DNA of 64,000 bases from an uncultured Acidimicrobiia bacterium. GTDB taxonomy: Bacteria; Actinomycetota; Acidimicrobiia; Spongiisociales; Spongiisociaceae. The position numbers and the translations under genes were made by a program. Of the stretch, positions 3 to 27,939 are shown piece by piece. The stretch's first letter is position 1, and each line of letters opens with the position of its first letter. Below the pieces are notes generated by a model, which saw only the letters and a program-made list of their open reading frames with translations, was not told the DNA's origin and did no database searches. The stretch covers positions 1,295,724-1,359,723 of the forward strand of contig OY282370.1 of the NCBI GenBank assembly GCA_958295745.1, written 5' to 3'.

Positions 3-389
3 TACGCCTACCCGTTCGACTACAGCGAGACCGACTGGGAGCAGGCGCCGGTGGAGCTCCGCAACCAGATGGCCTTCATCGGGCGAGCCCAGCAGGGCGG
101 CGTCAAGGTAACGGCGGGCACCGACCTCACCAACCCGTTCGTGGTGCCGGGACACAGCATGCATGAGGAGCTGCGCCTGCTCGTGGAAGGCTGCGGTTTC
201 ACCCCTATGGAAGCCATCGTCGCCGCCACCGGCCGGGCGGCCGAGCTGCTGGGTCGGCAGGAGGATCTGGGCACGGTAGAAAAGCGCAAGCTGGCCGATT
301 TGGTGGTGCTCGACGGCGACCCGCTGGCGGACATCGGCAACACCCGGCGGATCACCGCCGTTTATAAGGGAGGCCGGGCCGTAGGGTAG
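3..389 (+). CDS. Amidohydrolase-family metal-dependent hydrolase, C-terminal fragment (5' end outside window)
   Basis: Open frame continues from base 3 to TAG at 387-389. The C-terminal residues (..GHSMHEEL..DLVVLDGDPLADI..) are typical of the amidohydrolase superfamily C-terminus. Confidence 0.55.
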   Translation, partial: YAYPFDYSETDWEQAPVELRNQMAFIGRAQQGGVKVTAGTDLTNPFVVPGHSMHEELRLLVEGCGFTPMEAIVAATGRAAELLGRQEDLGTVEKRKLADLVVLDGDPLADIGNTRRITAVYKGGRAVG

Positions 390-691
390 GAGGTCGGCGG
401 GCCTTCACCGGATCCCGGGCCGAGTCCGCAGGCGGGTTTGATGCGGCGGCCCCCAGAGAACCTCTCCGACGGGAGGGCGGCCCGCCCTTGCTCTCCCCTC
501 CGTCGCGCCGAGTCCTGCCGGGCTTTCTATCTCCTACGCCGTCGAACGACCCTGCCTCGCCCTGCCGGACCGAATCCGCCCAACCCGCCTGTCCCTGCCC
601 TGTTCGACGTTCTTTCCGCCCCCGGACATCCGAGGACCCGGGGAAATGGACGGAGTAACCATTCACGGCTCAGGGACAGACAGTCAGGACC

Positions 692-978
692 CGTTTTTCG
701 CGTTCTCCGCCCAAAACCTCCGGCTTCGCCGGGCCCTGCCCCCGCCGCCACCGATCCACCGTCTTCGGGCCGCCGGGGGCGTGTCCGCCCGGCTTGTGCC
801 CGATCCGTCTCAGCACAGCTAGTCCGACCGCCCCCGCCCCTTGGAGGCCCGCCCGGGAAGATGACCGAAGGGTCGGCGCCTCTGGGCCGGGGAGTGGTCT
901 TCTATGACCCCAGTGATCCGCGGAGCCACTGGAATATCTGTTATCCAACACTATACACCCTACCTATGACAATTTCAA
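692..978 (-). ncRNA. Candidate promoter-driven structured RNA/leader element, copy A (orphan, transcribed leftward)
   Basis: Minus-strand -35 TTGAAA (973-978), 17-nt spacer, -10 TATAGT (950-955). Downstream hairpin CCAGTGG..CACTGG, then GGTCATAGAAG, then a conserved core ending CGTTTTTCGCGTTCTC at 692-707 (plus-strand representation). Roughly 85-90% identical to copy B over the core by eye. Confidence 0.4.
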
Positions 979-1032
979 TACCCTTGTTCTCCATCCTCGG
1001 TTTCTGCTTGGAGGGAAATCCGCAGGGGGTGC

Positions 1033-1908
1033 TCAGCCGGAGACGATCCGGATCGGTGCGCCCATCGCCTCCTGGGGGTGGATATCTATGACCCCACTCA
1101 CTTCCCTGACTAACCGGACCCCGTTGCGGCGCAGCACGGAGGAGGTTGCCGCTAGATCCGCCGAAGACAGGACCAGCCGGTCGGGACCCGGCAGCCATCG
1201 ATCCGGTCTGGAGGCGGCGGGGTGATCCGGTTCGGGGGCGGGTGCGTAGATATCCAAGACAAAGCGCCCGAGGCGGCAGCACCAGTGAAGGCCTTCCATG
1301 ATCCAGCATCCATCCGCCAGCCCCAACCCCTGCTCGCAGATGCGCACCGCCGCCTCCACATCGTCCACCCGCAGGCTGATCCCGGCCACTCCCCCCACCC
1401 GATTTTGATGGCGCCAGGAAGGGTGTCCGCCGCCGCCGCCGCCCGCCGTCAGCTCCTCCTCCCCGGTGATCCAGTCGATCAGATAAGGCCACGGCTTGCG
1501 CCACGGGGAGCCGCCCGGCACTACCAGCCGCCACTCCACCAGCCCTCCGTCCGGCCGCATCCTGTTCATGTAGAAGGGGTCGGCGGTCTCGATGCCCAGC
1601 GCCCTGAACCGGGCCGCTTCCCGATCCAGACCGGATCCGGCCAGCACGTAACCCGCCAGGCCCGCCCCCCGGCCTGCCAGGAAGTCCACCAGGTCGGCCC
1701 CGAACCGTCCGGCGGCCCGCGCCCGATCCGGGTCTTCCACGGCCAGCAGCTCCAGGTAGTCGAGGCCGAAGCGGACGATGGCGTTGCGGGTGCCGAGCGA
1801 AGGGTGGCGCCCGCCTGCTTCCACCTCGAAACCGAGCCTGCGGAAGGCCGACATCCCCGCCTCCAGATCGGTCATGGCGACCACCGCATGGTCGAAACGT
1901 ACGATCAT
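1033..1908 (-). CDS. VOC-family (glyoxalase/bleomycin-resistance/dioxygenase) two-domain protein
   Basis: ORF 1033-2157. Internal ATG at 1908 gives MIVRFDHAVVAMTDLEAG.., a typical VOC N-terminus. The region upstream of that ATG is low-complexity. Confidence 0.55.
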   Translation of the reverse strand: MIVRFDHAVVAMTDLEAGMSAFRRLGFEVEAGGRHPSLGTRNAIVRFGLDYLELLAVEDPDRARAAGRFGADLVDFLAGRGAGLAGYVLAGSGLDREAARFRALGIETADPFYMNRMRPDGGLVEWRLVVPGGSPWRKPWPYLIDWITGEEELTAGGGGGGHPSWRHQNRVGGVAGISLRVDDVEAAVRICEQGLGLADGCWIMEGLHWCCRLGRFVLDIYAPAPEPDHPAASRPDRWLPGPDRLVLSSADLAATSSVLRRNGVRLVREVSGVIDIHPQEAMGAPIRIVSG

Positions 1909-1994
1909 TCCCGCCTCCTCCACTCCGCTTGCCCGGCGGTGACGGTACGCCCGCCGCCCGCCGTTGCTGTAATACGGGAGCGCTCCTCTGGTCC

Positions 1995-3026
1995 TTACCG
2001 GCCGCCCGCCAGCGCAGGCAGCACCTCTTCGGTCACCCTTCGGAACTGCGCCGCCTCGTCGCGGCCGGCCAGCCGCAGGGTGATGGTGGTGGCCCCCGCC
2101 TCTACGAAGCGGCGGATCCGGGCGGCGCACCGCTCGGGATCCCCGACCGCCGCCCACCGATCCAGGAACCCCCGGTCGTATTCCACCCCGTAGTATTCGG
2201 CCAGGTAGGAGGCGACTTCTTCCATGCCCCGGGCGCGGTCGTCGGTGACGTATATGTTGTAGTACAAGCAGGCCTCGAATCCAGCCCCGATTGGGCGGCC
2301 TTCCTCGGCGGCGTAGCGGCGGATGTCCGCCAGGTTAGCCGCGAAGCTGTCCGGCGTGTTGGCTGTGGTCATCCAACCGTCGCCCAGCCGGGCTACCCGC
2401 CGCAGCGCCCGCTCCGCCAGCTTCGGGAAGGCGGGGTTGGGGTTGGCGGTCACCCAGATCGGCAGGGGCTGCTGCACAGGACGGGGCAGCACGGTCACCC
2501 CTTCGAAGCGGTTGTAGGTGCCTTCGTAGGAGGCGTTCTCGGTGGTGGACACCAGGCGCAGCACCTCGATAGCCTCCTCCATCCGCCGGCTCCTCGTGGA
2601 GGGGTCGATCCCGAAGGCGGCGAATTCCTCTTCGAACCGCCCTCCCCCCGCTCCCCGCTGCCCCTGGCAGGCCGCGAATATCGACCGGCCCCCGGAGAGA
2701 TGATCGAAGCTGAGCCACTGGTAGGCCATCAGCAACGCGTCCCGCAGCGGAGTGCTGGCCATACATCCCACTCCCAGCCGGACCCGTTCGGTGAGGGCCG
2801 CCAGCGCACCGAGGGCCACGAACGCGTCCAGCCTCGGTTTGGCGAAGATCGAGTCGCCCAACCAGACCGAGTCCCACACCTCGGCGGCGTCGGCTTCGGC
2901 GGCCAAGGCCAGCATCTCCTCCACCGTGGACATCCCCAGCAACACGCTGCGGTTCGACAGGGTGAGCCCGTACTTGGCCCTGCCTCCGTTCCGACCCTCC
3001 ACCTCTGGTACCTCCTGTTCGGACAT
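1995..3026 (-). CDS. LLM-class (luciferase-like) flavin/F420-dependent oxidoreductase
   Basis: ORF 1995-3068. ATG at 3026 is preceded by AGGAGG. Protein motifs (..VWLGDS..TERVRLGVG.., ..ITLRLAG..) match luciferase-like monooxygenases. Confidence 0.65.
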   Translation of the reverse strand: MSEQEVPEVEGRNGGRAKYGLTLSNRSVLLGMSTVEEMLALAAEADAAEVWDSVWLGDSIFAKPRLDAFVALGALAALTERVRLGVGCMASTPLRDALLMAYQWLSFDHLSGGRSIFAACQGQRGAGGGRFEEEFAAFGIDPSTRSRRMEEAIEVLRLVSTTENASYEGTYNRFEGVTVLPRPVQQPLPIWVTANPNPAFPKLAERALRRVARLGDGWMTTANTPDSFAANLADIRRYAAEEGRPIGAGFEACLYYNIYVTDDRARGMEEVASYLAEYYGVEYDRGFLDRWAAVGDPERCAARIRRFVEAGATTITLRLAGRDEAAQFRRVTEEVLPALAGGR

Positions 3027-3176
3027 CAGCGCCCACCCGCCGCCGCCCGGAATCCTAACCCCCGGCACTGGGAAGCTGGCGGCCCGGGCTCAGGAAGGCG
3101 GCTTCCGGAACAGGCTGCCAAGCCGTCGAACCCTCTACTCCTGCCAAGAAAATGGGCGTAAACCGGAACAAGGGTA

Positions 3177-3545
3177 TTGTTGTTGTCACATCAATGCTGT
3201 ATAGTGTTGGATAACAGACCCCGCAGCGGTCCGGAAGCTGCGGTCATAGAAGTCGTCCCATCCACAGAGACGCCGTCGCTTCGGACAGGTTACGGCGGCG
3301 GTCCGGAATGGGCAGGACGGTTGAACTTGCTGTGCTGAGACGGATCGGGCACGGGGCCGGGCGAGCACGCCCCCCGCGGCCCGAAGACGGTGGATCGGTG
3401 GCGGCGGGGGCAGGGCCCGGCGAAGCCGGCAAGTTTCGGGCGGAGAACGCGAAAAACGATTCTGGGCCGGTACATCTGGTCGTCTCGGCGGCCCGATTGC
3501 GAAATAGTTCTCTTACCAGAACAGGCTGGTCCACCGGCCCGGATC
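3177..3545 (+). ncRNA. Candidate promoter-driven structured RNA/leader element, copy B (orphan, transcribed rightward)
   Basis: -35 TTGTTG (3177-3182), 17-nt spacer, -10 TATAGT (3200-3205). Hairpin CCGCAGC..GCTGCGG co-varies with the copy A hairpin. GGTCATAGAAG follows, then the core GCTGTGCTGAGACGG...GAGAACGCGAAAAACG (3329-3458). Confidence 0.4.
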
Positions 3546-3566: not shown

Positions 3567-5150
3567 TTACGGGCCTTGCCCCCGGCCGGCGCGTCGGTCG
3601 GCGAAGACTCCTATGCGGCGCACCAGCCGGGCGGCGGTCACGGTGCGGGAGCGCTGCAGATCGGCCGCCGCCCGGCCGTGCCAGTAGGCGGCCGAGCGGG
3701 CGGCGGTAGGACCGTCCAGGCCCGCCGCCCAGAAGGCGCCTATCATCCCCGCCAGCACGTCACCGGTGCCGATGGTGGCCAGCTCCGGGCCGCCCGTGGT
3801 AACCGCCCACCGCTGCGGGGGCGGCCCCATCACGAAGGTGGGGTCGCCTTTCAGCAGCACGGTCACCCCCAAGCCGCGGGCCAGGCGGTCGGCCTCCTGA
3901 TATGTAGCGGGTCGGCCCGCCAAGCGAACGAACTCCCGTGCGTGGGGAGTTATGACGATCTCGCTGCCTTTCCCCGCCAGGTCCGCCGGGCGGCCGGACA
4001 GGGCGTTCAACCCGTCGGCGTCCACCAGCAACGGCCCTTGCCGACCCGCCAGCACTTCCTTCACGAAACCGTGGACGCCGGGCCCGGACCCCATCCCCAT
4101 CCCCAGCACCATCACGTCGAAGCGGTCGGCCAGCTCCAACACCTCGGCGGCGTCCGCAGGCTCGAACGACCCGGCGCCGCCGACCTCCCCTACAGCCCTG
4201 GTCATCACCTCCGCGGCCGAGACCCTCGCCTCCACCGAGGACGGGCAGGCGATCATCACCGCCCCGGCCCCGGCCCGCAGGGCGGCCCGCCCGGCCAGGG
4301 TCACCGCCCCGTCGATCCCGGCCGACCCTCCCACCACCAGCACGGATCCCGCCGACCACTTGTGGGCGGTCCGCCGCCGCACAGGAAGGGGGGCGTCGCC
4401 TTCCTCGCACAGCCGCAGTTCCGGCGCCACCTCGGGCAGGCCTATGTCGGCCACCGTCACCTCCCCGCACAGGTCGGGGCCCTCCCCGATCAGATGCCCG
4501 ACCCGGTAGCCGCCGAAGGTCACGGCGGCGTCGGCTCTCAAGACCCCCTCGGCGGCCATCCCGGTGGCGGCGTCCAAACCGGAAGGCACATCCACCGCCA
4601 GCACCTCGACCGACGCCCCTGCCGTTCCCGACCTGCCCGCCTCGACGGCCCGCTCCCACACCGAAAGGTCGGGCATCCTCCCCCCGGCCCGGAACCCGCC
4701 CCCGAACAGGGCGTCGATGACCAGGTTGTAACCGCCCCCCGGCCTCCCCGCCTCGTCTTCGCCGGCAACCCCCCTCACATCCGCCCAGGACCGTATGGCA
4801 ACACCGGCCAGCGCCGCCCTCCTCCTGGCCCATCGCGCCGGCCCGGTCTTCGGCTCAACCAAGGGATACACATCCACCATCGTCCCCCGCCCGGCCAGAT
4901 ATCCGGCCGCTACATAACCGTCCCCGCCGTTGTTGCCCGGACCCGCCAGCACCGCCGCCCGCCGCCCGTAGCCCGCCGCACCCAACCGCACAGCCTCCAG
5001 CGCAACCGCCATCCCGGCCCGGTCCAGCAACGTCAGCTCGTCGTCCTCGGCCAGAGCATCCTGGCGGCGTGACTGCTCGGGGGTAAGCACCGGTTTCACC
5101 GAGCACCCGTCCGGCTTCCCGACAAGGCCCGACACAAGGCCGCCCCGCAT
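3567..5150 (-). CDS. nnr: Bifunctional NAD(P)H-hydrate repair enzyme Nnr (YjeF_N epimerase + ADP-dependent dehydratase)
   Basis: GPGNNGGDG motif in the N-terminal half and a carbohydrate-kinase-like C-terminal half. Start is ambiguous: ATG at 5150 or GTG at 5099. The ORF as drawn extends to 5345. Confidence 0.7.
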   Translation of the reverse strand: MRGGLVSGLVGKPDGCSVKPVLTPEQSRRQDALAEDDELTLLDRAGMAVALEAVRLGAAGYGRRAAVLAGPGNNGGDGYVAAGYLAGRGTMVDVYPLVEPKTGPARWARRRAALAGVAIRSWADVRGVAGEDEAGRPGGGYNLVIDALFGGGFRAGGRMPDLSVWERAVEAGRSGTAGASVEVLAVDVPSGLDAATGMAAEGVLRADAAVTFGGYRVGHLIGEGPDLCGEVTVADIGLPEVAPELRLCEEGDAPLPVRRRTAHKWSAGSVLVVGGSAGIDGAVTLAGRAALRAGAGAVMIACPSSVEARVSAAEVMTRAVGEVGGAGSFEPADAAEVLELADRFDVMVLGMGMGSGPGVHGFVKEVLAGRQGPLLVDADGLNALSGRPADLAGKGSEIVITPHAREFVRLAGRPATYQEADRLARGLGVTVLLKGDPTFVMGPPPQRWAVTTGGPELATIGTGDVLAGMIGAFWAAGLDGPTAARSAAYWHGRAAADLQRSRTVTAARLVRRIGVFADRRAGRGQGP

Positions 5151-5487
5151 ACCTCGGCGCCATCGCTTCGAGTTCCTGCCCTGCGCCCCTTCATCACAGC
5201 GGTTCGCAGTCGGCGGTCGTCGTTCATTCGCTCCGTCTCCTTCCCGAGAACGAACCTCACAGCACCGGGTTCTCCATCCCGCGCAAAGCCGCTCCGCAGA
5301 ACGCCCCTCCTCTCCGCCTTGCTCGGAGGTCGAACACAGCTCCACTCCAAGATAGCGAACAGCATCGATCTATCTTCTGACAACGTATGCGGCGGGGGCC
5401 ACGGTTTCGAAACCTCGGACAGACAGAGCGAACCGCAACCCGCGAAAATCCCCGCCGGAATCCCTTACCCGGCATCCCCGACCGCAG

Positions 5488-7118: not shown

Positions 7119-9254
7119 CTAGGCGTTGTCGTAGATTCTCACGTTGGACAGCTCGAAGCTGTTGCGGACCGACCGGTCGGCGCTGTAGCTGTGGAACGAC
7201 ACCCGGGTGTAGTTGCCCGACCGCAGGGCCGCCTCGAACTCGGCCAGGGTACGATCCCTGCCGTCCACCGTGAACACGTCGTTCGAGTCATAGCGGACCA
7301 ACGCGGGGAACCCCGGATTCAGCACTATCAAATCGTCGTTCACGTCACTGGCCAGAAGCTCGGCCCCCAAGGATCCGGACTCGTTGTGCGGCACCGCCCA
7401 ATGGTGCCGTATCCGCTCGGCCCGCACCCTGGAGTCCGGCACCTGGACGGTTATGGTTTCCGACCCCGGGGTGGTCCCATCCCGCAGATACCTCAAAAGA
7501 GCCGCCCCCTGCGAGTCGGTGACCCTGCTCTTGGCCACCGAACCCACTCCCCGGCTGTCATCGGACGTGAACTCCAGCCTGACGCCCTCCACCGGGTCCC
7601 CGTACTGATCCGTCAGGACTGCCGTCACCAGGTGGGCCACCCCCGGCCCGGCCGCCGACACCAGGTGATAGGCCCGCCCCTGGCTCAACTTCAGCTCCGA
7701 GGGCCGGGCTTCCTCCTCCACCCAGCGGAGAAGAGCATTCTCCCCGGTCAGCACCCTGGACACCGTCCGGTCCACCACCTCCCGCCCCGGCGCCGACACC
7801 TCCATGACCAACGCCGCCCAGTCATCCCCCGACTGCGAAGAGGTATCCGGATCCTGTTGGCGGAAGGTGAGGCTCACCCGGCCGAAGCGGTCGGTGGGGT
7901 AGGTCTTTATCTCCGTCCGGCCCGTAACACCCCCCACGTCGATCCTGCTGGAGACCCGCACCCCCACCCCGCCTTCCGTCACCGGACTGCCGGTATCGTC
8001 CACCAGCTGCATGGTGAAGGTCACCGAATCCCCCAGCCGCAGCCGGCTGGCCCCCCTGCGCATGTCGTCCTCGACCACCAGCGAAGCCGAAGGCCGGGAG
8101 ACGGCTATTTCGAGCTGGCCGGCCTCGGTCACCCCGTCCCGGTAGATATCGTTGTGGGCGCCGGTCCAAGCCCAGAAGACGGTGCTCTCGGAGAGCTCTA
8201 CGGCAACAAACACGTTGCCCAAGTCGTCGGTGCGCCTATCCAGCCGGTCGATCTGGCAAATCTGCCCGGTGGGCACTGCGCTCACCTCCCTGGTGCAGTT
8301 CCCCCTGGCGTCGAAGGCCACATCCCATCTCCTGAGGGAGATCGAAAAGATATCCAAGGGGACCGCCGCCACCGACCTGCGGTCCTGGTCCCTGACCGAG
8401 AAATGCAGGTTGATGGTGTCCCCGGCGGGCACGGACGACCGGCCCGACCTGTCCACCTGGATGGTTACCCCCGCCGGCCGGGCGTTGCTGTGGTTCAGCG
8501 CCCGGGCGATGAACAACGCCATCTGACTCCGGCTCACCCGCTCGTTAGGCGAGAACCGGCCCTCCGAGGTGCCGGAGGTGACCCCCATCTCATAGAGGAC
8601 CATGATCGCCTGCTCGACGGCCCCGGACAGCGGGCTTATATCTTCGAACACCGTGTCGTCCGGCGCCACCTCGCTTACCTCGACCCCGCCCTCTCCGATC
8701 GGGATCTCCCCCAGGAACCGATACAGGAACAAGGCCATCTGCTGGCGGGAAACCGGCCCGTAGGGCGAGAACCGGCCCTCCCCGGTGCCCCTGGTGATCC
8801 CCAGCTGGGCCAGCCGGTTGACGGCTTCCCGGGTGGACGGTCCCAGAGTCCCGATATCCTCGAATCCCTGGTCCCGGGCTTCCGGCAGCGCCAACCCGGC
8901 CGCCTCCGCCGCCCGCACCAGGAACAACGCCATCTGCCAACGGCTAACCGAGTTGCCGGGCGAGAAGGCGCCCGACGAGGTCCCCTTGGTTATTTTATAG
9001 TAGGCCAGGCAGTTGATGGCGTCCTCGGCAAAGATGTCAGCGGTGTCCACAAAGCCCGCCGGGGTAGTCGCCGCCGCCCCCACACATGCCGAATAGCGGG
9101 CGGTGTTGTCAGGCTCGCCGTCCACCGCCATGGCCGGGCCCGCCCCCGGTCCGAACGGCCCTACCGCGCCGACCGCCAACAGCGCCGCGGCCAGCATGAC
9201 CCGCCCGGCCCGCACCGGCCGCGCCCGAACGGCCGAGGCCCCAACCAACTTCAT
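7119..9254 (-). CDS. Secreted cell-surface protein with three N-terminal SLH domains and Ig-like repeats
   Basis: Signal peptide after ATG at 9254. Three S-layer-homology repeats (..RWQMALFL.., ..RQQMALFL.., ..RSQMALFI..) are followed by beta-rich repeats. Confidence 0.7.
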   Translation of the reverse strand: MKLVGASAVRARPVRAGRVMLAAALLAVGAVGPFGPGAGPAMAVDGEPDNTARYSACVGAAATTPAGFVDTADIFAEDAINCLAYYKITKGTSSGAFSPGNSVSRWQMALFLVRAAEAAGLALPEARDQGFEDIGTLGPSTREAVNRLAQLGITRGTGEGRFSPYGPVSRQQMALFLYRFLGEIPIGEGGVEVSEVAPDDTVFEDISPLSGAVEQAIMVLYEMGVTSGTSEGRFSPNERVSRSQMALFIARALNHSNARPAGVTIQVDRSGRSSVPAGDTINLHFSVRDQDRRSVAAVPLDIFSISLRRWDVAFDARGNCTREVSAVPTGQICQIDRLDRRTDDLGNVFVAVELSESTVFWAWTGAHNDIYRDGVTEAGQLEIAVSRPSASLVVEDDMRRGASRLRLGDSVTFTMQLVDDTGSPVTEGGVGVRVSSRIDVGGVTGRTEIKTYPTDRFGRVSLTFRQQDPDTSSQSGDDWAALVMEVSAPGREVVDRTVSRVLTGENALLRWVEEEARPSELKLSQGRAYHLVSAAGPGVAHLVTAVLTDQYGDPVEGVRLEFTSDDSRGVGSVAKSRVTDSQGAALLRYLRDGTTPGSETITVQVPDSRVRAERIRHHWAVPHNESGSLGAELLASDVNDDLIVLNPGFPALVRYDSNDVFTVDGRDRTLAEFEAALRSGNYTRVSFHSYSADRSVRNSFELSNVRIYDNA

Positions 9255-11610: not shown

Positions 11611-12414
11611 ATGGCGACCATCGACACGATCAGCGACCTCATGCGTGTACTGGACACGCATCCCGAGTGGTTGGAGGCGATGCGCGCCCGTTTGTTGACC
11701 AGCGATGTTCTGGAAATGCCCCGACGACACGTGGAATCTACCAACCGTCGCCTGGAGGCTGTCGAACGACTCCTAGAAAACCACGAACAACGCCCAACAA
11801 ACATCGAACGACTCCTAGAAAACCACGAACAACGCCCAACAAACATCGAACGACTCCTAGAAAACCACGAACAACGCCCAACAAACATCGAACAGCTCCT
11901 AGAAAACCACGAACAGCTCCTACAGGGGGACAGCCACTACTTCACAAACGTCTACCGTCGGCTTGACCGCCAATCCGCTGATACGAGTTTCATCAAAGGC
12001 GAGCTGTTCGAAAGGAGGGCCCGTCGGTTGGCACAGGTTCTCACCTACGAATTGGGGTTGGCATGGAAGAGAACCCTGACCGACGAGGAAATACTGGAAA
12101 TGATCAGCAGTCGGCAGGACACCTCCGGCATCGACGCCCGCCGCCTGTACCGTCTTCGGCGGCTTGACCTAACAATTGAAGCCGTCGACCAGAAAGGCAG
12201 TCCCTGTTACATCGCCGGGGAGGTGTCTTACACCGTCGACGAGCGGGATACGGTCCGGGCCATCGACGGGGCGCGGCTCCTGACCGGGCTGACCGGACTG
12301 GCCGCCCATGCCGTGGTGGTCGGAACCCGCAAGGACGACCGTATCCAATGCCAGCTCGATGCCGGCGAGGTGTTCTACTGGGAATTGGAGGACGACGACC
12401 TACTGCCGAGGTGA
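11611..12414 (+). CDS. Hypothetical protein with a coiled-coil tandem-repeat region and a C-terminal domain of unknown function
   Basis: ATG at 11611 preceded by AGGGGAAG. Three perfect 14-aa repeats (ERLLENHEQRPTNI). GC content is lower than the surroundings (about 55% by eye). Confidence 0.55.
   Translation: MATIDTISDLMRVLDTHPEWLEAMRARLLTSDVLEMPRRHVESTNRRLEAVERLLENHEQRPTNIERLLENHEQRPTNIERLLENHEQRPTNIEQLLENHEQLLQGDSHYFTNVYRRLDRQSADTSFIKGELFERRARRLAQVLTYELGLAWKRTLTDEEILEMISSRQDTSGIDARRLYRLRRLDLTIEAVDQKGSPCYIAGEVSYTVDERDTVRAIDGARLLTGLTGLAAHAVVVGTRKDDRIQCQLDAGEVFYWELEDDDLLPR
11767..11926 (+). repeat. Perfect 42-bp tandem repeat, three full copies plus a diverged partial fourth copy
   Basis: cgactcctagaaaaccacgaacaacgcccaacaaacatcgaa occurs three times exactly, inside the CDS 11611-12414. 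Confidence 0.9.
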
Positions 12415-12684: not shown

Positions 12685-15600
12685 CTATCTTCGGATTAGG
12701 TAGACGGTCGACAGCTGCTTGTCGGTGGCCGTCTCCTCGCGGTGGGCGGAGTAGAGGGCGCCGGTGGTCCTGTCGAAGACGGTATGCCAGCCGAGGCGCC
12801 CGGCGGCCTTCACCCCAAGGAACTCTTCATCCACGGAGCTGTCGTCCGCCCAGCCGCCGGAGGGCCTATTGAACAGCACCACCGAACCCCGGAAGTCGCC
12901 CTCCTGCCGGTGGAGGCGCCCGGCGGCCACGGCCGAACCGTCGCCGGTCATCGTCACGAACCGGCCGAACAGATCCTGAGCCCGCCCCCGTCCGGCCTTC
13001 AGAACATCCGGGGCATTGCTGTCCGCCCAGCCGCCGGAGGGCTTGGTGAACACATGTATCTCACCGTTCCGTCCTTCGTCCTCGTGGGAATTACCGGCGG
13101 CGGCCACCACATCGCCGGCGCCGGAGAGGGCCACGTGCGCGCCCATCCGCTGCTGCGCCAAGGCGGTGGGGGCGGCCAGCACCGCCGTTTCCTGGATCGG
13201 TGAGGTTACCGCGGTGTCGCTGGTGTTCCATTCCGACCCGGACCTGACATATATGTAGGAAGATCCGGCCTCGGCGGTGCTGCCGATCTTCCTCTCGGCG
13301 CCGCCCACCGCGATCACATCGCCGTCGTCGGACACCGACACCGCCCTCTCCCGGCCGAACTGCATGGTGCTGCCGGAGACGGCGATGGTGGTGCTGGGCC
13401 ACAGCACCGCCCGGCCCGCCCCGTCGTCGTCGTCCCAGCCGGCAGTGCTGTTGTCGTTCTTCTCGAACACGTAGGCCAGGCCGTCTGATTCATCCAGCGT
13501 CGAGCAGGCCACCGGGGCGCGGGGATCTCGAGAGGTGACCACCACCGTGTCACCGTCTTTGGAGACCGCCACCCCGTAGCCGAACATGTGGTTGCGGCCG
13601 GAGCTGCTGGAACAGGCCGCATGATCGGTGCCGGCCACCCTGGCCTGCAGGGTGCCGGCGGTGCCCAGCCCGGAGTTGGTGAGGGTGGCAGCGGGCTGGA
13701 TGCCGGTTCCTTCCCAACCGCCGGAGGGCTTGGTGTAGATGAACACCCGCCCGTTGTCGGCGGCGGTCGCTCCGCTGGCCATTTCGTCGACCCTGGGCGC
13801 CCCGACCACGATGGTGTCGCCCGCGATGTCCACGTCGTATCCGAAATAGTCGTTCTCCTTGGGGACGGGGGCCGTCAGGATCGCCGGGCTCGCATCGGCC
13901 ATGCCTTCGTATACATACACCCGGCCCGCCTTGGGGCATTCTTGGATCGGGGTGCCCGAGTTGCCGTCGTGGTCGCAGTTGAAGGCCTCGTAACCGGCGC
14001 CGACCACTATCACACCGTTGTCGGCGGCGATGGCCTGCCCGAACTGGGCTTCGGCGCCGGCCGCCGCCCCGCCCGGATGGTCCAGGCTGCTCCATCCGTA
14101 GCGGAGAGCGATCTGGCCTGCGCCGGATGAGGAGGCGTGGTAGACCCCCACCCGTACATGGGCGGCGGAGTCCAGGCCGTCTTCGAAGTCGGAAAGCGAT
14201 CCCGACCCGTCCAGGGCGGTCAGGAAATCGTTGCTGTCGTAGGAGGCCAGCAGCACCTTCTCCGCGGCGGAGATCACGAACCGGTTGTCGGACGCGTCGT
14301 GGGCCAGGAGCCGGCCGGACAGCGGGGCGTCGGCGGCTTCCATGTCCTCCGTCCAGTAGTGATACAGGCGGTTGGAGGTGAACCCCCCGCCGGTGGCCCA
14401 GATGGTCTCGATGACGCTCTGGCCGGAATCTCGGTGGTAGGTGAGGGAAGCCGCGCCTGCGACGGCGGCCACCTGGTTGTCCGAGGCGGCGGCGCCGGTG
14501 AGAGTCCTCTTGCCGCCGCTTTCCGCGGAGGTAACGCCGCTGCTGTCCGCCCATATCCCGCTCGGATCGTCGGACAGGAAGGAAATGGTGTCGGTGGCGG
14601 CGGCCGTCTGACCGTACTGGTCGACGATCCTGGCGGAGACGGTGTTGGAGGCGCCCGCGCCCGACGAGGAGGCCTCGGTGTAGTCCGCCGTCTTGGCGAT
14701 CACCAAGGCGCGGGCCGCCGACGCTATGTCCTGCCCGCTCACCTCGTACTGGAGGTCGGCGTCGGGGGCGTTGGTGGTTCCGGCCACCACCGGCAGGGTC
14801 CTGCCCGAACGGGCGGCGGTGCTCGTCGTGAACGTCACCCGGGCGGTCTCGCCGGTGGCGGCGGTTCCGGCCTGGGTGAAGGAGAAGGAAGCCCTGCCCT
14901 CCTGATCGGTGGTGTAGCTGTCGGTCTGCGGCGAGCCGGCGCTGCCTCCCACCGGAGTTTCCGTGGAGGTGACGGTCACCCGCCAGCCGCTCTCGCGCAC
15001 CGGCCTTCCGGCCGAGTCCGACGCCTGCAGGGTGAAGGTAACCGTCCTCGACCGGTCCAGATTCAGATGGGTCTGCCCGGGCATCAGGTCGTCGGTCAGC
15101 AACACCTGAGTGGGCTTCGCCGAGGCGGTGTCGTCGGCCACCAACCCGCCCAGCAGGGTGATCCGGCTGATCCCCCTGGACGACGAAGCGTAGGTGTCCA
15201 CCCGGACGCGGGTGACCACAGGATTGGGCGTGGGTTCCTTGCCGGTGTAACCCAGCTCCTTCTCGAAGTCGGCCAGCCTCACCGGCCCGTCCAGGCCGTT
15301 CAGTTGGTCGTTGCCGTCGTATCCGACGAGAATGACCCCGCCCGACGCATCGCCGATGATCAGCCGGTTCCTGACCGTGTCCTTTTCCAGCAGCCGGCCC
15401 GAAACCGGCCCGGAGGCCTCCGTCGCCCAGTAGTGGGCCATCTGCTCGGGCGTCGAGCGCAGGTCGATGTCGTCGGCGGAGGTGCCGGCGTCGCCGGCGT
15501 CGGTGAATGTGGCCCAGATGTTCTCGATTCCGTCGGCGCCGGAGTCCCGGCTGTAGGAAAGGGTGGCCCTGCCCGACCGGTTGGTGGTGCGGGTCAACCG

Positions 15601-18739: not shown

Positions 18740-18975
18740 CCGCAACCCACCGCTTCCCGACGCTCGGATGCACCCGGCCGTCGCATAGTTGTCACACCCC
18801 TTATATATATTGAGCAGCATGATACAACGTTCTGATACGAGGACAGCCGGGGTGAGGGGACCATGCAGGAACACTGCCGACAACGCAGAAAGGGGAGGAA
18901 GCACACTATCGTGGAGGGTCGTGGAAGCGGAGAACCGGACTTGACCACGGCTGTCACCTTCGGGACGGAGGTCTC

Positions 18976-20175
18976 ATGACCGGCGCGCCGTCCAATGCCC
19001 GGACCCGGAAACCGGTTATCAGCCGCCTGGTCCGCGCCGCGGCCCACTCGCCTATCTCCGAGGCGCGCGCCCGGGCGGCCGTCGAGCCTTCCGGCACCGG
19101 CCTTCCCCTCTTGGACGTGGCCCAGGCCACCCCCGGCTATCCGCCCGCGCCAGGGCTGCAGCGGCGGATGGCCGAGCTGGACCATCGAGCGGTCTCCCGC
19201 TACGGGCCGGTCCTGGGCGAGGCGCCGCTGCGCGAGGCGCTCGCCCGGGAGCTGACCTTCGCCTACCGGGCCCCGGTGCGACCGGAACAGGCGGCGATCA
19301 CCGCCGGGGCCAACCAGGCCTTCTGCCTGGCCGTCTCGGTGTTGTGCGAGCCGGGCGACGAGGTGATCCTGCCCATCCCCTACTACTTCAACCACGACAT
19401 GTGGCTGGCCATCAACGGCGTCGAGGCGGTATACCTGCCCTGCTCCGGAGACATGCTTCCCTCCCCGGCGGACGCCGACGCCCTGCTGACGGAACGAACC
19501 AGGGCGGTGGTGCTGGTGACGCCCAACAACCCGACCGGGCGGGTGTACCCCCCCGCCCTCATCTCGGCCTTCGCCGACCTGGCCGCAGAAAGAGGAATCT
19601 GCCTGATCCTGGACGAGACCTACCGGCATTTCCGGAGCACCGCGGAGCCCGCCCATCATCTGTTCAGGGACCCGGACTGGGACCGGCACCTGATACATAT
19701 CGACAGTTTCTCCAAGGTGTACGCCATAACGGGCTACCGGGTGGGGGGCTTGGCCGCCTCCCCCGGCCTGCTCACGGAAGCCGAGAAGGTCGCAGACTGC
19801 CTGACCATCTGCCCCAACCGCCTAGGCCAGGAGGCGGCCCTCTACGGGCTGGGCCGCCTGGAAGGGTGGGTCGAGGAAAACCGCCGGGCGGCGTCCCGCC
19901 GGATCGGGGAGTTCACGAAGACGGCGGGCGGGCGCCCCTACGAAGTGGCCTCGGCGGGCGGCCACTTCGTCTACGTGCGCCATCCTTTCGAGGGGGCGCC
20001 GGCCCGGGAGGTGGCCCAGCGCCTGTACGACGAGCAGGCCGTGTTGGCCCTGTCGGGGGACATGTTCGGCCCCGGCCAGGACCGCTACCTGCGGCTGGCC
20101 TTCGCCAACGTCTCCGACTCCGACGTCCCGGAGCTGGCCCGCCGCCTAGCCGAGAGCGCCCTGATGTTCGCCTAG
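18976..20175 (+). CDS. PLP-dependent aminotransferase (class I/II fold)
   Basis: SFSKVYAITGYRVG lysine motif, and the NPTG box. Confidence 0.75.
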   Translation: MTGAPSNARTRKPVISRLVRAAAHSPISEARARAAVEPSGTGLPLLDVAQATPGYPPAPGLQRRMAELDHRAVSRYGPVLGEAPLREALARELTFAYRAPVRPEQAAITAGANQAFCLAVSVLCEPGDEVILPIPYYFNHDMWLAINGVEAVYLPCSGDMLPSPADADALLTERTRAVVLVTPNNPTGRVYPPALISAFADLAAERGICLILDETYRHFRSTAEPAHHLFRDPDWDRHLIHIDSFSKVYAITGYRVGGLAASPGLLTEAEKVADCLTICPNRLGQEAALYGLGRLEGWVEENRRAASRRIGEFTKTAGGRPYEVASAGGHFVYVRHPFEGAPAREVAQRLYDEQAVLALSGDMFGPGQDRYLRLAFANVSDSDVPELARRLAESALMFA

Positions 20176-22448: not shown

Positions 22449-22916
22449 GTGCGCCTCCAACCCACTCGTTCGACAACCACGGTAGACACTACTAGGGACA
22501 GGGCGGCATATAGCGTCTCACGGCAGGCCGGTGCGGACGGTCAAGCGCTGTCTGCCCCAAGGGTTCGGGGCAACCCGTTTCCGAGGAAGGCGGCCCCTGC
22601 CCACCCTCCTACTCACAGAACCCGCCTTCGCTCGGCATCCTGCAGGTCAGTCTCGTCGTTGCCGTAAAGCGCCTGGCCAATCGGGGTCGGTAAAACCGGG
22701 CTTCGCACCTCGAGAACGCGAAAAACGACCCACCTCCGCCCCCTTCGGGCCCGGCCCCCACCTCCTCCACTCCGTTTGAACGGTCGTCTTGGGCGTGCGG
22801 GGCTTGGGAACCCTCGGCGCTCAACACGACCTGGAATGATCACCGCCCTCCGGAGCAGAAGTGATATTTGTGATATCGGTATATATTGTTATACAACATT
22901 CTTGGGACAAGTTCAA
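22449..22916 (-). promoter_or_regulatory. glmS promoter plus about 430-nt structured leader (element copy C)
   Basis: Minus-strand -35 TTGAAC (22911-22916), 17-nt spacer, -10 TATAAC (22888-22893), with the shared upstream GAACAAGGGT motif. The 5' hairpin ATCACTTCTGC..GCGGTGATCAT is shared with copy D. GGGCCGGGCCCGAAGGGGG is present, and the GAGAACGCGAAAAACG box appears in inverted orientation (plus-strand 22712-22727). Confidence 0.45.
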
Positions 22917-22944
22917 GACCCTTGTTCGAAATCTCTTCGGTTTT

Positions 22945-26043: not shown

Positions 26044-26568
26044 TCAGACGGCGGCCGGGAACAGAATCGTCCCTATGTACCAGCCGAGGACGCCGGCGGC
26101 GGCGAGGAAGCTGTTGCGGGGGTGCCTCATATCGAAAAGGGCGTCCGCCACCACCCGCAGGGCCAGGAAGAACCATAGGAGCGACAGGGCGAGCAGAGGT
26201 ATGCGCAACAGGTCCGCCCAGACCGCCGCTATCAGCGGGAGGAAGGCGACGTGGGCGAACCCGACCAACCGGAAGGCCGAGGCCAGACTGCCGTAGCGCT
26301 TGAACAAGTGGACGCCCGCCGCCCAGACCGCCCCGGCGGCCAAGCCCGCCCGCACGATGCTCCACAGCGCCGCCGACGCCGCAGCGACCACCGACGGGGC
26401 GGCCAGCACGGGGAGCACCGAGACGAGGACGATGACCACCACCGCGTTGCCGGTGGCGTAGTTGTCATGGCGCAACGACGTGTAGAAGGACCTGTCTAGC
26501 CGCCCTGCGCTGAAGATCTGACCGAACACGGCACCTCGCACCGAAGACTCGGCAGAGGCTACCAGCAC
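26044..26568 (-). CDS. Integral membrane protein, Yip1-domain-like (hypothetical)
   Basis: 174 aa with 4-5 predicted TM helices and no recognisable catalytic motif. Confidence 0.45.
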   Translation of the reverse strand: MLVASAESSVRGAVFGQIFSAGRLDRSFYTSLRHDNYATGNAVVVIVLVSVLPVLAAPSVVAAASAALWSIVRAGLAAGAVWAAGVHLFKRYGSLASAFRLVGFAHVAFLPLIAAVWADLLRIPLLALSLLWFFLALRVVADALFDMRHPRNSFLAAAGVLGWYIGTILFPAAV

Positions 26569-26575
26569 AAGGGTA

Positions 26576-27154
26576 TTGACTTGTCGCAGCTACTCGATAT
26601 GATGATAACTGTAGAACAATACAAACATCACTTCCGCAGTCCGGACAGCGGTGATCATATGAGCGAGTCCCGCACCGGGACGAGCAAAACTAGCTGTGCC
26701 GAGACGGATAGGGCACGGAGAGGGAACACGCCCTCTCGCCCCTGAGACGGTGGATTGGCGGCGGCGGGGTGGGGCCCGGCGAAGCCGGGGATTTGGCGGG
26801 GAGAACGCGAAAACCGGCGGCTGGCGGGGGGCAACACCGGAAGGACGGGGCTTGGTTCAACGGTGGGGCGGTCGAAGCGACCTAACCTTGCGCCTACCGC
26901 AGATGCACTCTCGAAAGGCTCGGCTACCTACGATCCCGTCCTACCGAGGCCGCCTTGAGAACCCAACCCGGTTTCGGCCCGACCAAGGCCTTTCCAAAGC
27001 GTCGTGGGCGACGCCAGCGGCCCCCGGGCAGGCCGGCTCGGCGTCGGCCGCCGGGCAGGGGAGCCCCAACTCGACGATGGGTGTTACCACCCGGACGGCG
27101 GATGATCCGTCCTGAGGTCGCTTCGATGGGGCGTCCGTTGGTCATGGCAAGAAT
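26576..27154 (+). promoter_or_regulatory. Promoter plus about 550-nt structured leader (element copy D) in front of the low-GC two-gene module
   Basis: -35 TTGACT (26576-26581), -10 TATGAT (26598-26603), upstream ACAAGGGTATTG. 5' hairpin ATCACTTCCGC..GCGGTGATCAT. Core TAGCTGTGCCGAGACGGATAGGGCAC...GGCCCGGCGAAGCCGG...GAGAACGCGAAAACCG at 26693-26816. Confidence 0.45.
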
Positions 27155-27376
27155 TTGGCTTCGGTGTATATGCTCTCCCAAGACGACAAGGGGAACGGGA
27201 TGGTTGTCGTAATAAACCTAACGGAAGAGGAACTGTGGAAGCGGATCGATCCCTCGCTCGAGGACTTGGGGATGACACGTGACCGGTTCATCGCCGAAGG
27301 GAGAAACGACACTCTTGAAGACCCGCAGCTCCGGGACCTCTGGATCGTATACGGGGCGATGTTGACAGAGGAATGA
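27155..27376 (+). CDS. Small acidic hypothetical protein (candidate antitoxin/immunity-like partner)
   Basis: ORF of 73 aa. An internal ATG at 27200 is preceded by AAGGGGAACGGG, giving an alternative 58-aa protein. Region is about 50-55% GC by eye. Overlaps the next ORF by ATGA. Confidence 0.4.
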   Translation: MASVYMLSQDDKGNGMVVVINLTEEELWKRIDPSLEDLGMTRDRFIAEGRNDTLEDPQLRDLWIVYGAMLTEE

Positions 27377-27939
27377 ACGATTCGAAGCTCTGGATCCTTG
27401 CTCGAGAGTTTGCAGAAGATCTAAACAACAACCTCATGGCAAGGGTTCTGGGTGTCGGTGATGCTCTCCGGGTTACCGGCAAGGGTAAAGATAAAGTCTC
27501 CATAGAAACAACGGGGGTTGACTCTCGAGAGAAACCTGGGTTGCCCCTGATGCGGGCGTCTGATGAAACCCCGTCCCTGTTTCTTCGGGTCGGGTTCAGG
27601 CTCATGCTCGATTCGCAGAACGAGTTCCTGAAAGTCGATAGTTCCATCTTCGGACTGTGGGTCAAGACACCTGATCGCAACCTCCCGCGGCCTTTCGTGC
27701 GGGTCGAGTACGACCGGAGAAAGAGGCGGGCCTCGGCGGCGCATATACAGATACACGCCGAGTCGAAGGATCTGAAGTGGATCGACCAGTCTGCCGGGAG
27801 GACCCCCCGGCAGACAAGCGGGTCAGACCAGCTCTATCTGGGCCATCTCGGCGTTGTCGCCGCGCCGGGGGCCCAACTTGACGATGCGGGTGTAACCGCC
27901 CGGGCGGCGGTTGTAGCGGGGCGCCACCTCGTCGAATAG
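27373..27939 (+). CDS. Basic hypothetical protein (188 aa as drawn; C-terminal about 40 aa overlap the rplQ 3' end on the opposite strand)
   Basis: Low-GC ORF, translationally coupled to the upstream small ORF. Has a basic patch (RRKRR). I found no match to a family I recognise. The last 117 nt run antisense through high-GC rplQ sequence, so the functional C-terminus is uncertain. Confidence 0.4.

Follow-up and report, generated by a model that had tools for sequence, protein, structure and literature searches.

The stretch of DNA considered here, hereafter the window, comprises 64,000 nucleotides of contig OY282370.1 (positions 1,295,724 to 1,359,723) from the genome assembly GCA_958295745.1 of an uncultured Acidimicrobiia bacterium; the relatives of the proteins encoded by it are labelled 'Acidimicrobiia' as well. 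Near its left end, two non-coding elements of about 300 bp, designated A and B, stand in inverted orientation on either side of a pair of minus-strand genes. The elements, their parts and the neighbouring genes are as follows.

3-389, plus strand: C-terminus of an amidohydrolase (Pfam)
692-990, minus strand: element copy A (A-type), a promoter followed by some 250 nt of non-coding sequence, pointing at the amidohydrolase gene from its 3' side, recognised by its inverted homology to B
692-833, minus strand: conserved 3' core of A, GAGACGGAUCGGGCAC...GGUGGCGGCGGGGGCAGGGCCC...GGAGAACGCGAAAAACG, 89-96% identical to B in blocks and 79% to a further copy, C, with compensatory changes relative to C
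910-932, minus strand: 5' hairpin of A in the predicted transcript, CCAGUG...CACUGG
950-987, minus strand: promoter of A from a sequence scan, with ACAAGGGTATTGA at 987-975, a -35-like TTGAAA at 978-973, a TGTC of the '-26' type at 971-968, a 12-nt spacer and TATAGT at 955-950
1033-1908, minus strand: Glyoxalase_3/VOC gene (Pfam), a context gene outside the elements
1995-3026, minus strand: Bac_luciferase/LLM oxidoreductase gene (Pfam), a context gene outside the elements
3165-3460, plus strand: element copy B (A-type), a promoter followed by some 250 nt of non-coding sequence, pointing at nnr from its 3' side
3168-3205, plus strand: promoter of B, ACAAGGGTATTGT, with TGTC at 3184-3187, a 12-nt spacer and TATAGT at 3200-3205, aligned as TTGTTG-17-TATAGT
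3221-3243, plus strand: 5' hairpin of B in the predicted transcript, CCGCAGC GGUCCGGAA GCUGCGG
3315-3458, plus strand: conserved 3' core of B from the alignment with A, comprising the G-rich block GGUGGCGGCGGGGGCAGGGCCC and a terminal hairpin, GUUUC-GGGCG-GAGAA-CGCGAAAAAC
3397-3404, plus strand: GGTG^GCGG, the window equivalent of an IS110 insertion site that is occupied in a sister strain
3567-5345, minus strand: nnr, with YjeF_N and Carb_kinase domains (Pfam)

A first-pass annotation of this DNA had described 692-990 and 3165-3460 as an inverted duplication and had proposed a comparison of the window with itself. The alignment held: self-BLASTN returned a single match between 3166-3458 and 989-692, with 80.4% identity over 301 nt (E 1.6e-67). 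A repeat search of the window resolved this homology into the gapless inverted blocks 720-793/3356-3429 (74 nt, 96% identity), 937-989/3166-3218 (53 nt, 83%), 796-833/3315-3352 (38 nt, 89%) and 692-717/3433-3458 (26 nt, 96%), and the longest exact run common to both copies measures 54 nt (720-773/3376-3429). Alignment with MAFFT revealed a well-kept promoter-like region and a well-kept 3' core of about 140 nt, separated by a more diverged middle segment; the 5' hairpins are unlike in sequence and yet retain their pairing in both copies. The replaced hairpin and the changed internal segment that the annotation had noticed are thus seen in the alignment as well, and Pfam confirms the minus-strand VOC and LLM genes that the repeats bracket. 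The homology stops sharply at ...GAAAAACG, short of the neighbouring genes; the conserved part of B ends 109 nt before the stop codon of nnr, and that of A 303 nt before the stop codon of the amidohydrolase gene. Sigma-70-like hexamers are present in both copies, and no credible same-strand gene was found downstream of either, in agreement with the earlier view of outward-facing promoters without a gene on their own strand. A small open reading frame (ORF) within the predicted transcripts was considered and rejected from the alignments, since the copies have no ORF in common and differ by indels whose lengths are not divisible by three. The spacer downstream of A, which is lineage-specific, contains a sub-threshold Rfam match to Actino-ugpB (527-608, minus strand; 23 bits, E 0.39) that probably reflects chance.

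A and B are not the only elements of their kind. With both included, at least four related copies are present in the 64-kb window, and ACAAGGGTnTTGA occurs in it four times, once per copy, against an expectation of 0.33. The further copies, and a promoter related to theirs, are located as follows.

18790-18811, plus strand: TGTCACA-N-TAnnnT promoter upstream of the aminotransferase gene at 18976-20175, whose orthologue in the related locus L008 has a full D-type unit upstream
22697-22927, minus strand: element copy D (D-type-like), lying between glmM and glmS and co-oriented with glmS, found with a D-type covariance model (33 bits, E 8e-8)
22909-22888, minus strand: promoter of D, TGTC...TATAAC
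26566-26817, plus strand: element copy C (A-type with a shorter middle), flanked by a membrane-protein ORF and a remnant of an IS110 element, found by BLASTN

The core of C is 79% identical to that of B (BLASTN, E 4e-25), while D was matched by BLASTN through its promoter and 5' hairpin (22927-22890, minus strand). The IS110 remnant beside C (27098-27145, minus strand) corresponds to 17 amino acids of a transposase and is followed at 27160-27820 by an island of lower GC content with small ORFs that have no Pfam matches; both lie between C and rplQ, within an otherwise conserved ribosomal-protein/truA cluster. With regard to the surroundings of D, a glmS ribozyme (80 bits) was detected upstream of glmS in three loci retrieved from other assemblies (such loci are designated here by L numbers), namely L008 and L009 (11654-11810 in both) and L010 (12803-12960). 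In the glmM-glmS spacer of the window (22461-22944), no glmS ribozyme was found even at E<=10, and this spacer holds D with a promoter of its own; the idea that D is itself a degenerate glmS ribozyme was dismissed, as it has no Rfam match at E<=10.

A weak match of D in L005 gave access to D-type units in relatives. L005 carries one unit at 14946-15161 (plus strand) and another at 8522-8304 (minus strand), the latter in the spacer that B occupies in the window and facing the 3' end of nnr; orthology of the two is not demonstrable, as the flanking coding DNA alone aligns. A unit resides between rplO and secY in L010 (1224-1450, plus strand), where L008 has none, and L008 and L009 possess one upstream of the aminotransferase gene (16370-16150, minus strand); further copies are present in L096 and L097. 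A pattern built from the conserved D-type blocks identified 83 metagenomic loci, over which an nhmmer profile gave 57 matches, 33 of them reaching both profile ends. Many of the contigs terminate within it, as one would expect if assemblies break at this repeat. Searches with the A-type pattern over genome contigs returned three chance matches only, and the A-type tail pattern had no match in the metagenomes, nor did the D-type pattern in viral contigs or a D-type copy by BLASTN against plasmids and phages. Rfam 15 contains no match for A to D or the D-type relatives at the gathering score or at E<=1-10, and no description of the RNA family was found in the literature searched. In L008 (19068-19147, plus strand) and L010 (18916-18842, minus strand), the promoter and the 5' hairpin (CAUCACCGC...GCGGUGAUCAU) occur without the remaining RNA upstream of small ORFs, with a compensatory A-U to G-C change between the two hairpins; the promoter-hairpin module may be separable from the RNA body.

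The D-type RNA is about 180 nt long. Read from the promoter, its consensus consists of TGTCACA-N-GTTGCATACT and GGUAgaUAACCGyAAAGCACC, the helix P1 (CGGUCC...GGACCG) around a palindromic loop, GGGAUCAU, a CCCC/GGGG hairpin, GGCGGGACGCG, GAGGUGGCGGU(U)GGGGGnGGGCCC, a variable hairpin and, finally, GGUUUUCGCG(U/G)UCUCGG. A covariance model (R1) was built from 18 diverse members, and cmsearch with it found 65 matches over the retrieved loci and the window. In the D-type alignment, 95.6% of the cells are paired, in comparison with 33-48% in slid controls, and eight pairs exhibit changes on both sides, in comparison with 2.4±1.0 in shuffles, none of which (0/500) reached eight. Compensatory changes occur in five of the six pairs of P1, and a long-range closing helix, GGGACGCG/CGCGUUCUC, is kept mainly through G-U and A-U changes. 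Fitting of the alignment to the model biases it toward the structure, yet the controls are exceeded by a wide margin. The D-type RNA hence shows compensatory substitution beyond controls and is a structured non-coding RNA. RNAalifold reported no structure for the model-fitted alignment (A7), owing to its many truncated rows. Two further candidate structures were set aside: a G-quadruplex in the G-rich block, whose four G-runs are not conserved, and a long-range 5' AACCG/CGGUU pairing, which exhibits some A-U/G-C switches together with uncompensated breaks and was excluded from the tested structure. The loop of P1 (e.g., in the unit at L008 16152-16328) is formed by either of two 8-nt palindromes (CGGUACCG or CGACGUCG), with an invariant GGGCCC further on; this symmetric switching suggests loop-loop dimerisation or a site for a dimeric protein.

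For the A-type, a fold set was formed by A, B, C and the copy of A in the sister strain L004. Pair-preserving switches within this set include GAUCGGGC/GCCCGA versus GAUAGGGC/GCCCCU and CCGGGCG...CGCCCCCGG versus GAGGG...CCCUC; the 5' hairpins are unlike, and the core helices switch from C-G to A-U and from G-C to A-U between A/B and C. The R1 model recovers D in part only and matches A, B and C at the G-rich block only (E 0.011, 0.013 and 0.14, respectively); among the matches in the first 30 kb, those to the blocks of A and B rank second and third after D and that to C sixth, all in the right orientation. A, B and C are best read as a divergent, derived 'A-type' of the wider D-type family. 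A peculiarity of the A-type concerns its 3' end. The tail GAGAACGCGAAAAACG of A and B (692-708, 3442-3458) is a perfect reverse complement, over 16-17 nt, of positions 22712-22728 of D in the glmS leader (BLAST, E 0.007), and the last 16 nt of the A-type tail GGAGAACGCGAAAAACG show perfect complementarity to CGUUUUUCGCGUUCUC, the closing strand of the D-type fold. As we read the alignments, the D-type tail GUUUUCGCG would have gained a complementary arm in the A-type and now form a local hairpin, GUUUU-GGGCG-GAGAA-CGCGAAAAAC; such a hairpin-forming duplication of the tail would explain its complementarity to D. Pairing in trans between A-type and D-type RNAs is possible.

The most constant feature of the family's promoters is not the -35 region. 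The promoter-like TTGAAA-17-TATAGT of A (minus strand, 978-950) scores 10/12. The -35 sequences of the D-type members range from TTGACC to nothing recognisable; invariant is a TGTC positioned exactly 12 nt before the -10. The arrangement TGTC-N12-TAnnnT is exact in A, B and C, and TGTC-N12-YAnnnT is found in 31 of 34 full-length D-type members. The window contains five TGTC-N12 matches (1.14 expected): those of A, B and C, one at 22479-22500 (minus strand) in the glmS leader and one at 18790-18811 (plus strand). The leader behind the last of these, about 165 nt in length, no longer matches the family; the site resembles a domesticated promoter whose RNA portion has decayed. The promoter geometry of the family is that of the PafBC motif, tGTCgg(N10)tA(N3)T, where PafB makes its base-specific contact with the GTC triplet of a '-26 element' and no -35 is required (PMC8635444); in the family, the 'gg' is replaced by ACA or GCA, and D has TATAAC. 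One family member is located just upstream of a Pup ligase gene, and at least that host therefore has a Pup system. By analogy, a WYL regulator resembling PafBC may act at the TGTC '-26' element and switch on the family promoters, which would hence probably be inducible by stress or DNA damage.

Several observations point to mobility of the units as DNA. They are short, multi-copy and non-coding, and filled and empty sites exist (L010 versus L008, the window versus L005 and L007), which are the attributes of a miniature inverted-repeat transposable element (MITE). In metagenomic copies of the MKWU01 type, the conserved unit of about 340 bp ends in imperfect inverted repeats (GTGTCCCGAGTC...AGTTCG and CGAACT...GGACAC, with the terminal inverted repeat (TIR) GTGTCC...GGACAC) flanked by TA. 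When this unit and one TA are taken out, the palindrome CCTCCTAGGAGG reappears, itself the terminus of a different repeat; we take these ends and the TA duplication to represent IS630/Tc1-like behaviour. The RNA-bearing MITE appears to have been inserted at the TA of the second repeat's terminal palindrome. In L021, L035, L092 and other loci of the MKWU01 type, a second short palindromic repeat (CTAGGAGGGTGCTGAGCAAT...ATTGCTCAGCACCCTCCTAG) abuts the MITE about 100 bp upstream of the unit. MITE-type TIR/TA ends are not detectable around A, B, C and D, nor in the copies of L005, L008 and L010.

The units also serve as a landing site. In L004, B is split by a 1300-bp element of the IS110 family of insertion sequences (IS; L004 8305-9604), at a position between 3400 and 3401 of the window, and the same element occupies the same site in D-type copies of L096 (2752-4122) and L097 (2753-4056), which stem from the same sample and have unlike neighbour genes. 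The junctions are identical in the three loci (...GGTG|AGCTCCTATGTC...CACGCATG|GCGG..., the left end starting with AGCTCC), and the transposase copy in L004 is frameshifted. Insertions at one position in different copies of the repeat suggest that the invariant G-rich block of the family is a natural target of IS110. In L004, the 60 nt of B past the IS (8243-8304, corresponding to window 3401-3458) are only 85% identical to the window, in surroundings that are 98% identical, and resemble C-like copies; the IS may accordingly have reached B of L004 by gene conversion from an occupied copy and not by a fresh insertion.

On the whole, A and B are probably separate copies, long diverged, of a dispersed non-coding unit; they would not constitute the arms of any larger structure able to move or invert. 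This unit would consist of a sigma-70-type promoter with an invariant TGTC 12 nt before the -10 and a variable or absent -35, a 5' hairpin followed by (G)AUCAU, and a structured body with the near-invariant GGUGGCGG(U)GGGGGnGGGCCC; in the A-type, the local terminal hairpin would have replaced the long-range closing helix of the D-type. In this scheme, the family propagates, or once propagated, at the level of DNA, and its copies would land in intergenic spacers in either orientation. A and B would be transcribed from their TGTC promoters into RNAs of about 250 nt, and their outward layout around the VOC-LLM pair is presumably incidental, resulting from two independent insertions or from retained copies. 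As a working model, we envision a stress-inducible promoter of the WYL/PafBC type that drives a structured RNA; the latter would propagate as a selfish element and now and then provide adjacent genes with its promoter.

A number of points weigh against this view. The D-type model misses A, B and C as whole units, since its matches (E 0.01-0.14) are confined to the G-rich block, and the homology of the A-type and D-type bodies consequently rests on the promoter, the layout of the 5' hairpin and short blocks. The compensatory changes of the A-type derive from three independent sequences, too few for statistics, and are suggestive only; the folding energy of B is no better than that of shuffled sequences (z -0.06), and that of A is marginal (z -2.25). 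The transcription start and the 3' end of the A and B units are predictions, and their near-identical cores could stem from gene conversion instead of selection. With respect to the promoters, the family lacks the 'gg' of the mycobacterial PafBC motif, and many of its members carry a usable -35. B at least, being split by an IS in the sister strain, is dispensable.

The first-pass annotation had entertained a composite, transposon-like cassette, an invertible cassette and a pair of antisense-RNA generators, and had advised a comparison of the locus across related genomes. The locus was retrieved from other assemblies through LLM homologues, and the window was compared with L004, L005 and L007. 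L004 is about 98% identical and collinear over the whole region, with A (12005-12324, 98% conserved) and B in the same arrangement and orientation and without any inversion; the LLM proteins of L005 and L007 are 84% and 83% identical, respectively, to that of the window. The order and orientation of the LLM, VOC and amidohydrolase genes are the same in all four. Between the VOC and amidohydrolase genes, however, L005 and L007 have gaps of 1 nt and 18 nt and no repeat, in comparison with 643 nt in the window, and this synteny without the repeats argues that the VOC-LLM pair is ancestral at the locus and that the repeats are lineage-specific additions. Inverted repeats bracket two genes, and in a different lineage the repeat has relatives that move as MITEs, which might suggest a composite element in which A and B act as arms and move VOC and LLM jointly. 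Yet the amidohydrolase gene stays with the VOC-LLM pair across genomes and sits outside the A-B bracket, the arms are 300-bp non-coding units of merely 80% identity and not insertion sequences with a transposase, and the inner genes occur without arms in L005 and L007. The target-site duplications that were looked for outside A and B were not found, and neither were TIRs at either copy; Pfam revealed no transposase, recombinase or invertase domain in the four flanking or bracketed genes, and the A-B block was not found at other places. The cassette reading is thus largely refuted by these comparisons, and we regard it as hardly credible. An inversion of the 2.2-kb VOC-LLM block by recombination between A and B, which would alter what the promoters drive, is slightly easier to envision and still highly improbable: the 54-nt exact and 74-nt 96% inverted matches, 2.5 kb apart, suffice for an occasional RecA-mediated inversion, but a single orientation prevails in the four genomes compared, no invertase or recombinase domain is encoded in the adjacent genes, and both promoters face away from the block, so that flipping it would leave the expression of VOC and LLM un-rewired.

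The third suggestion fared better, inasmuch as A and B are each a non-coding unit headed by a promoter, from a family whose RNA structure is backed by covariation; its antisense component, according to which transcripts from A and B run into the convergent amidohydrolase and nnr genes at their 3' ends and thus modulate these genes, appears to us rather improbable, although it is compatible with our preferred interpretation. Both units face convergent genes at the distances from the stop codons given above, without a canonical terminator in between, and the L005 copy also faces the 3' end of nnr; against this stand the sharp end of the homology before the neighbouring genes and the fact that the neighbours faced by other members are of every kind and often include co-oriented downstream genes of unrelated function. 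The latter finding bears equally on the notion of riboswitch-like cis-acting leaders that have lost their downstream genes. D precedes glmS, and other members are positioned 26-300 nt upstream of co-oriented genes such as those for SecY, an aminotransferase, an enoyl-CoA hydratase (ECH) and a DAO oxidoreductase. The downstream neighbours (Pup ligase, HipA_C, HicA, Fic, ECH, DAO oxidoreductase, MerR, glmS, secY and aminotransferase) do not belong to one gene class and have no common function, though, and a riboswitch-type leader is disfavoured because of their unrelatedness; A, B and C have no downstream gene at all, and the units possess their own promoter and move as a whole, which leaves this reading a very slim chance. 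More serious, if still unlikely, is the view that A and B are decaying relics, dead remnants of a promoter-bearing mobile repeat without a present RNA function. The interruption of B by IS110 in L004 fits it, as do the loss of any TIRs, the aminotransferase locus, which keeps the promoter alone in the window and a full unit in L008, and the identity of the elements between the window and L004 (98.1-98.7%), which is no higher than that of the mostly coding flanks (98.6%). Relics would nevertheless hardly be expected to have a core that is much better conserved than the remainder across A, B and C, pairing retained through compensatory changes, promoter hexamers and a TGTC that are conserved while the spacer varies, and D-type relatives that show covariation.

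We therefore retain the interpretation of A and B as separate copies of a dispersed, promoter-led RNA unit. When all of its strands are joined, a wider picture can be drawn, which as a whole we offer as speculation with low odds: a new class of structured non-coding RNAs of uncultured Actinobacteria-like lineages would be switched on by an activator of the PafBC type, which senses DNA damage or ssDNA, and be selfish (MITE-borne in some hosts), its invariant GGUGGCGG block would be a dedicated landing site for a bridge-RNA IS110 recombinase, and the A-type 3' tail GGAGAACGCGAAAAACG could target D-type units in trans, for instance the one in the glmS leader (22712-22727). The candidate RNA family, which is absent from Rfam, is represented by 83 metagenome loci and several related genomes and has the support of covariation. 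It would unite features that are rarely combined: a fixed promoter architecture with a '-26 element' so far known from the actinobacterial DNA-damage regulon, carriage by a MITE in one lineage and a fixed insertion site for IS110. The family may hence serve as a testable case of a regulated promoter and an RNA that spread through a genome and rewire neighbouring genes; in the window, copy D resides in the spacer in which relatives hold the glmS ribozyme, and the other locus keeps the promoter alone before the aminotransferase gene. It may also provide a natural target set for studies on the specificity of IS110 elements outside repetitive extragenic palindromic (REP) sequences.

Comparisons with known systems help to place the family. 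The Correia elements of Neisseria are promoter-bearing bacterial MITEs or dispersed repeats, and the units described here resemble them in being short, multi-copy and intergenic, in having outward promoters and unrelated neighbours, and, in one lineage, in possessing TIRs and a TA duplication; they differ in their conserved cargo, which comprises an RNA of about 180-250 nt whose structure is supported by covariation and a dedicated TGTC-N12 promoter, and the copies in the window are without detectable TIRs. Qrr and GlmY/GlmZ are multi-copy families of paralogous small RNAs (sRNAs) with a shared promoter; like them, the present family has several homologous RNA genes per genome, a distinctive common promoter and a variable 5' part next to a conserved core, whereas its copy number and dispersal are far higher and there is evidence for mobility at the DNA level. 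The insertions at GGTG^GCGG in three loci recall the targeting of REP sequences by IS110 elements with bridge RNAs (IS621, ISPpu9, ISPpu10), in which a multi-copy intergenic repeat is likewise hit at a fixed position (for ISPpu9, see PMC12288879); the target in our case is a block inside a promoter-led RNA unit and not a short palindromic REP. The sRNA gene ssr9 of Pseudomonas putida, which is multi-copy, occurs beside the IS110-family element ISPpu9 or solo and has been interpreted as a selfish module (PMC12288879), is another parallel; it is, however, situated downstream of the transposase gene and separable from it, has no sequence relation to the present family, and does not share the situation found here, where the IS lies inside the RNA unit and more than 40 intact copies of that unit are uninterrupted. 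A counterpart with respect to transcription is provided by the PafBC-dependent ('RecA-NDp', -26 element) promoters of actinobacteria, which likewise have a GTC element 12 nt before a canonical -10 and an optional or absent -35 (PMC8635444); the consensus of the family is TGTCACA in place of tGTCgg, and the known PafBC targets are mostly genes for DNA-repair proteins and not a dispersed RNA family.

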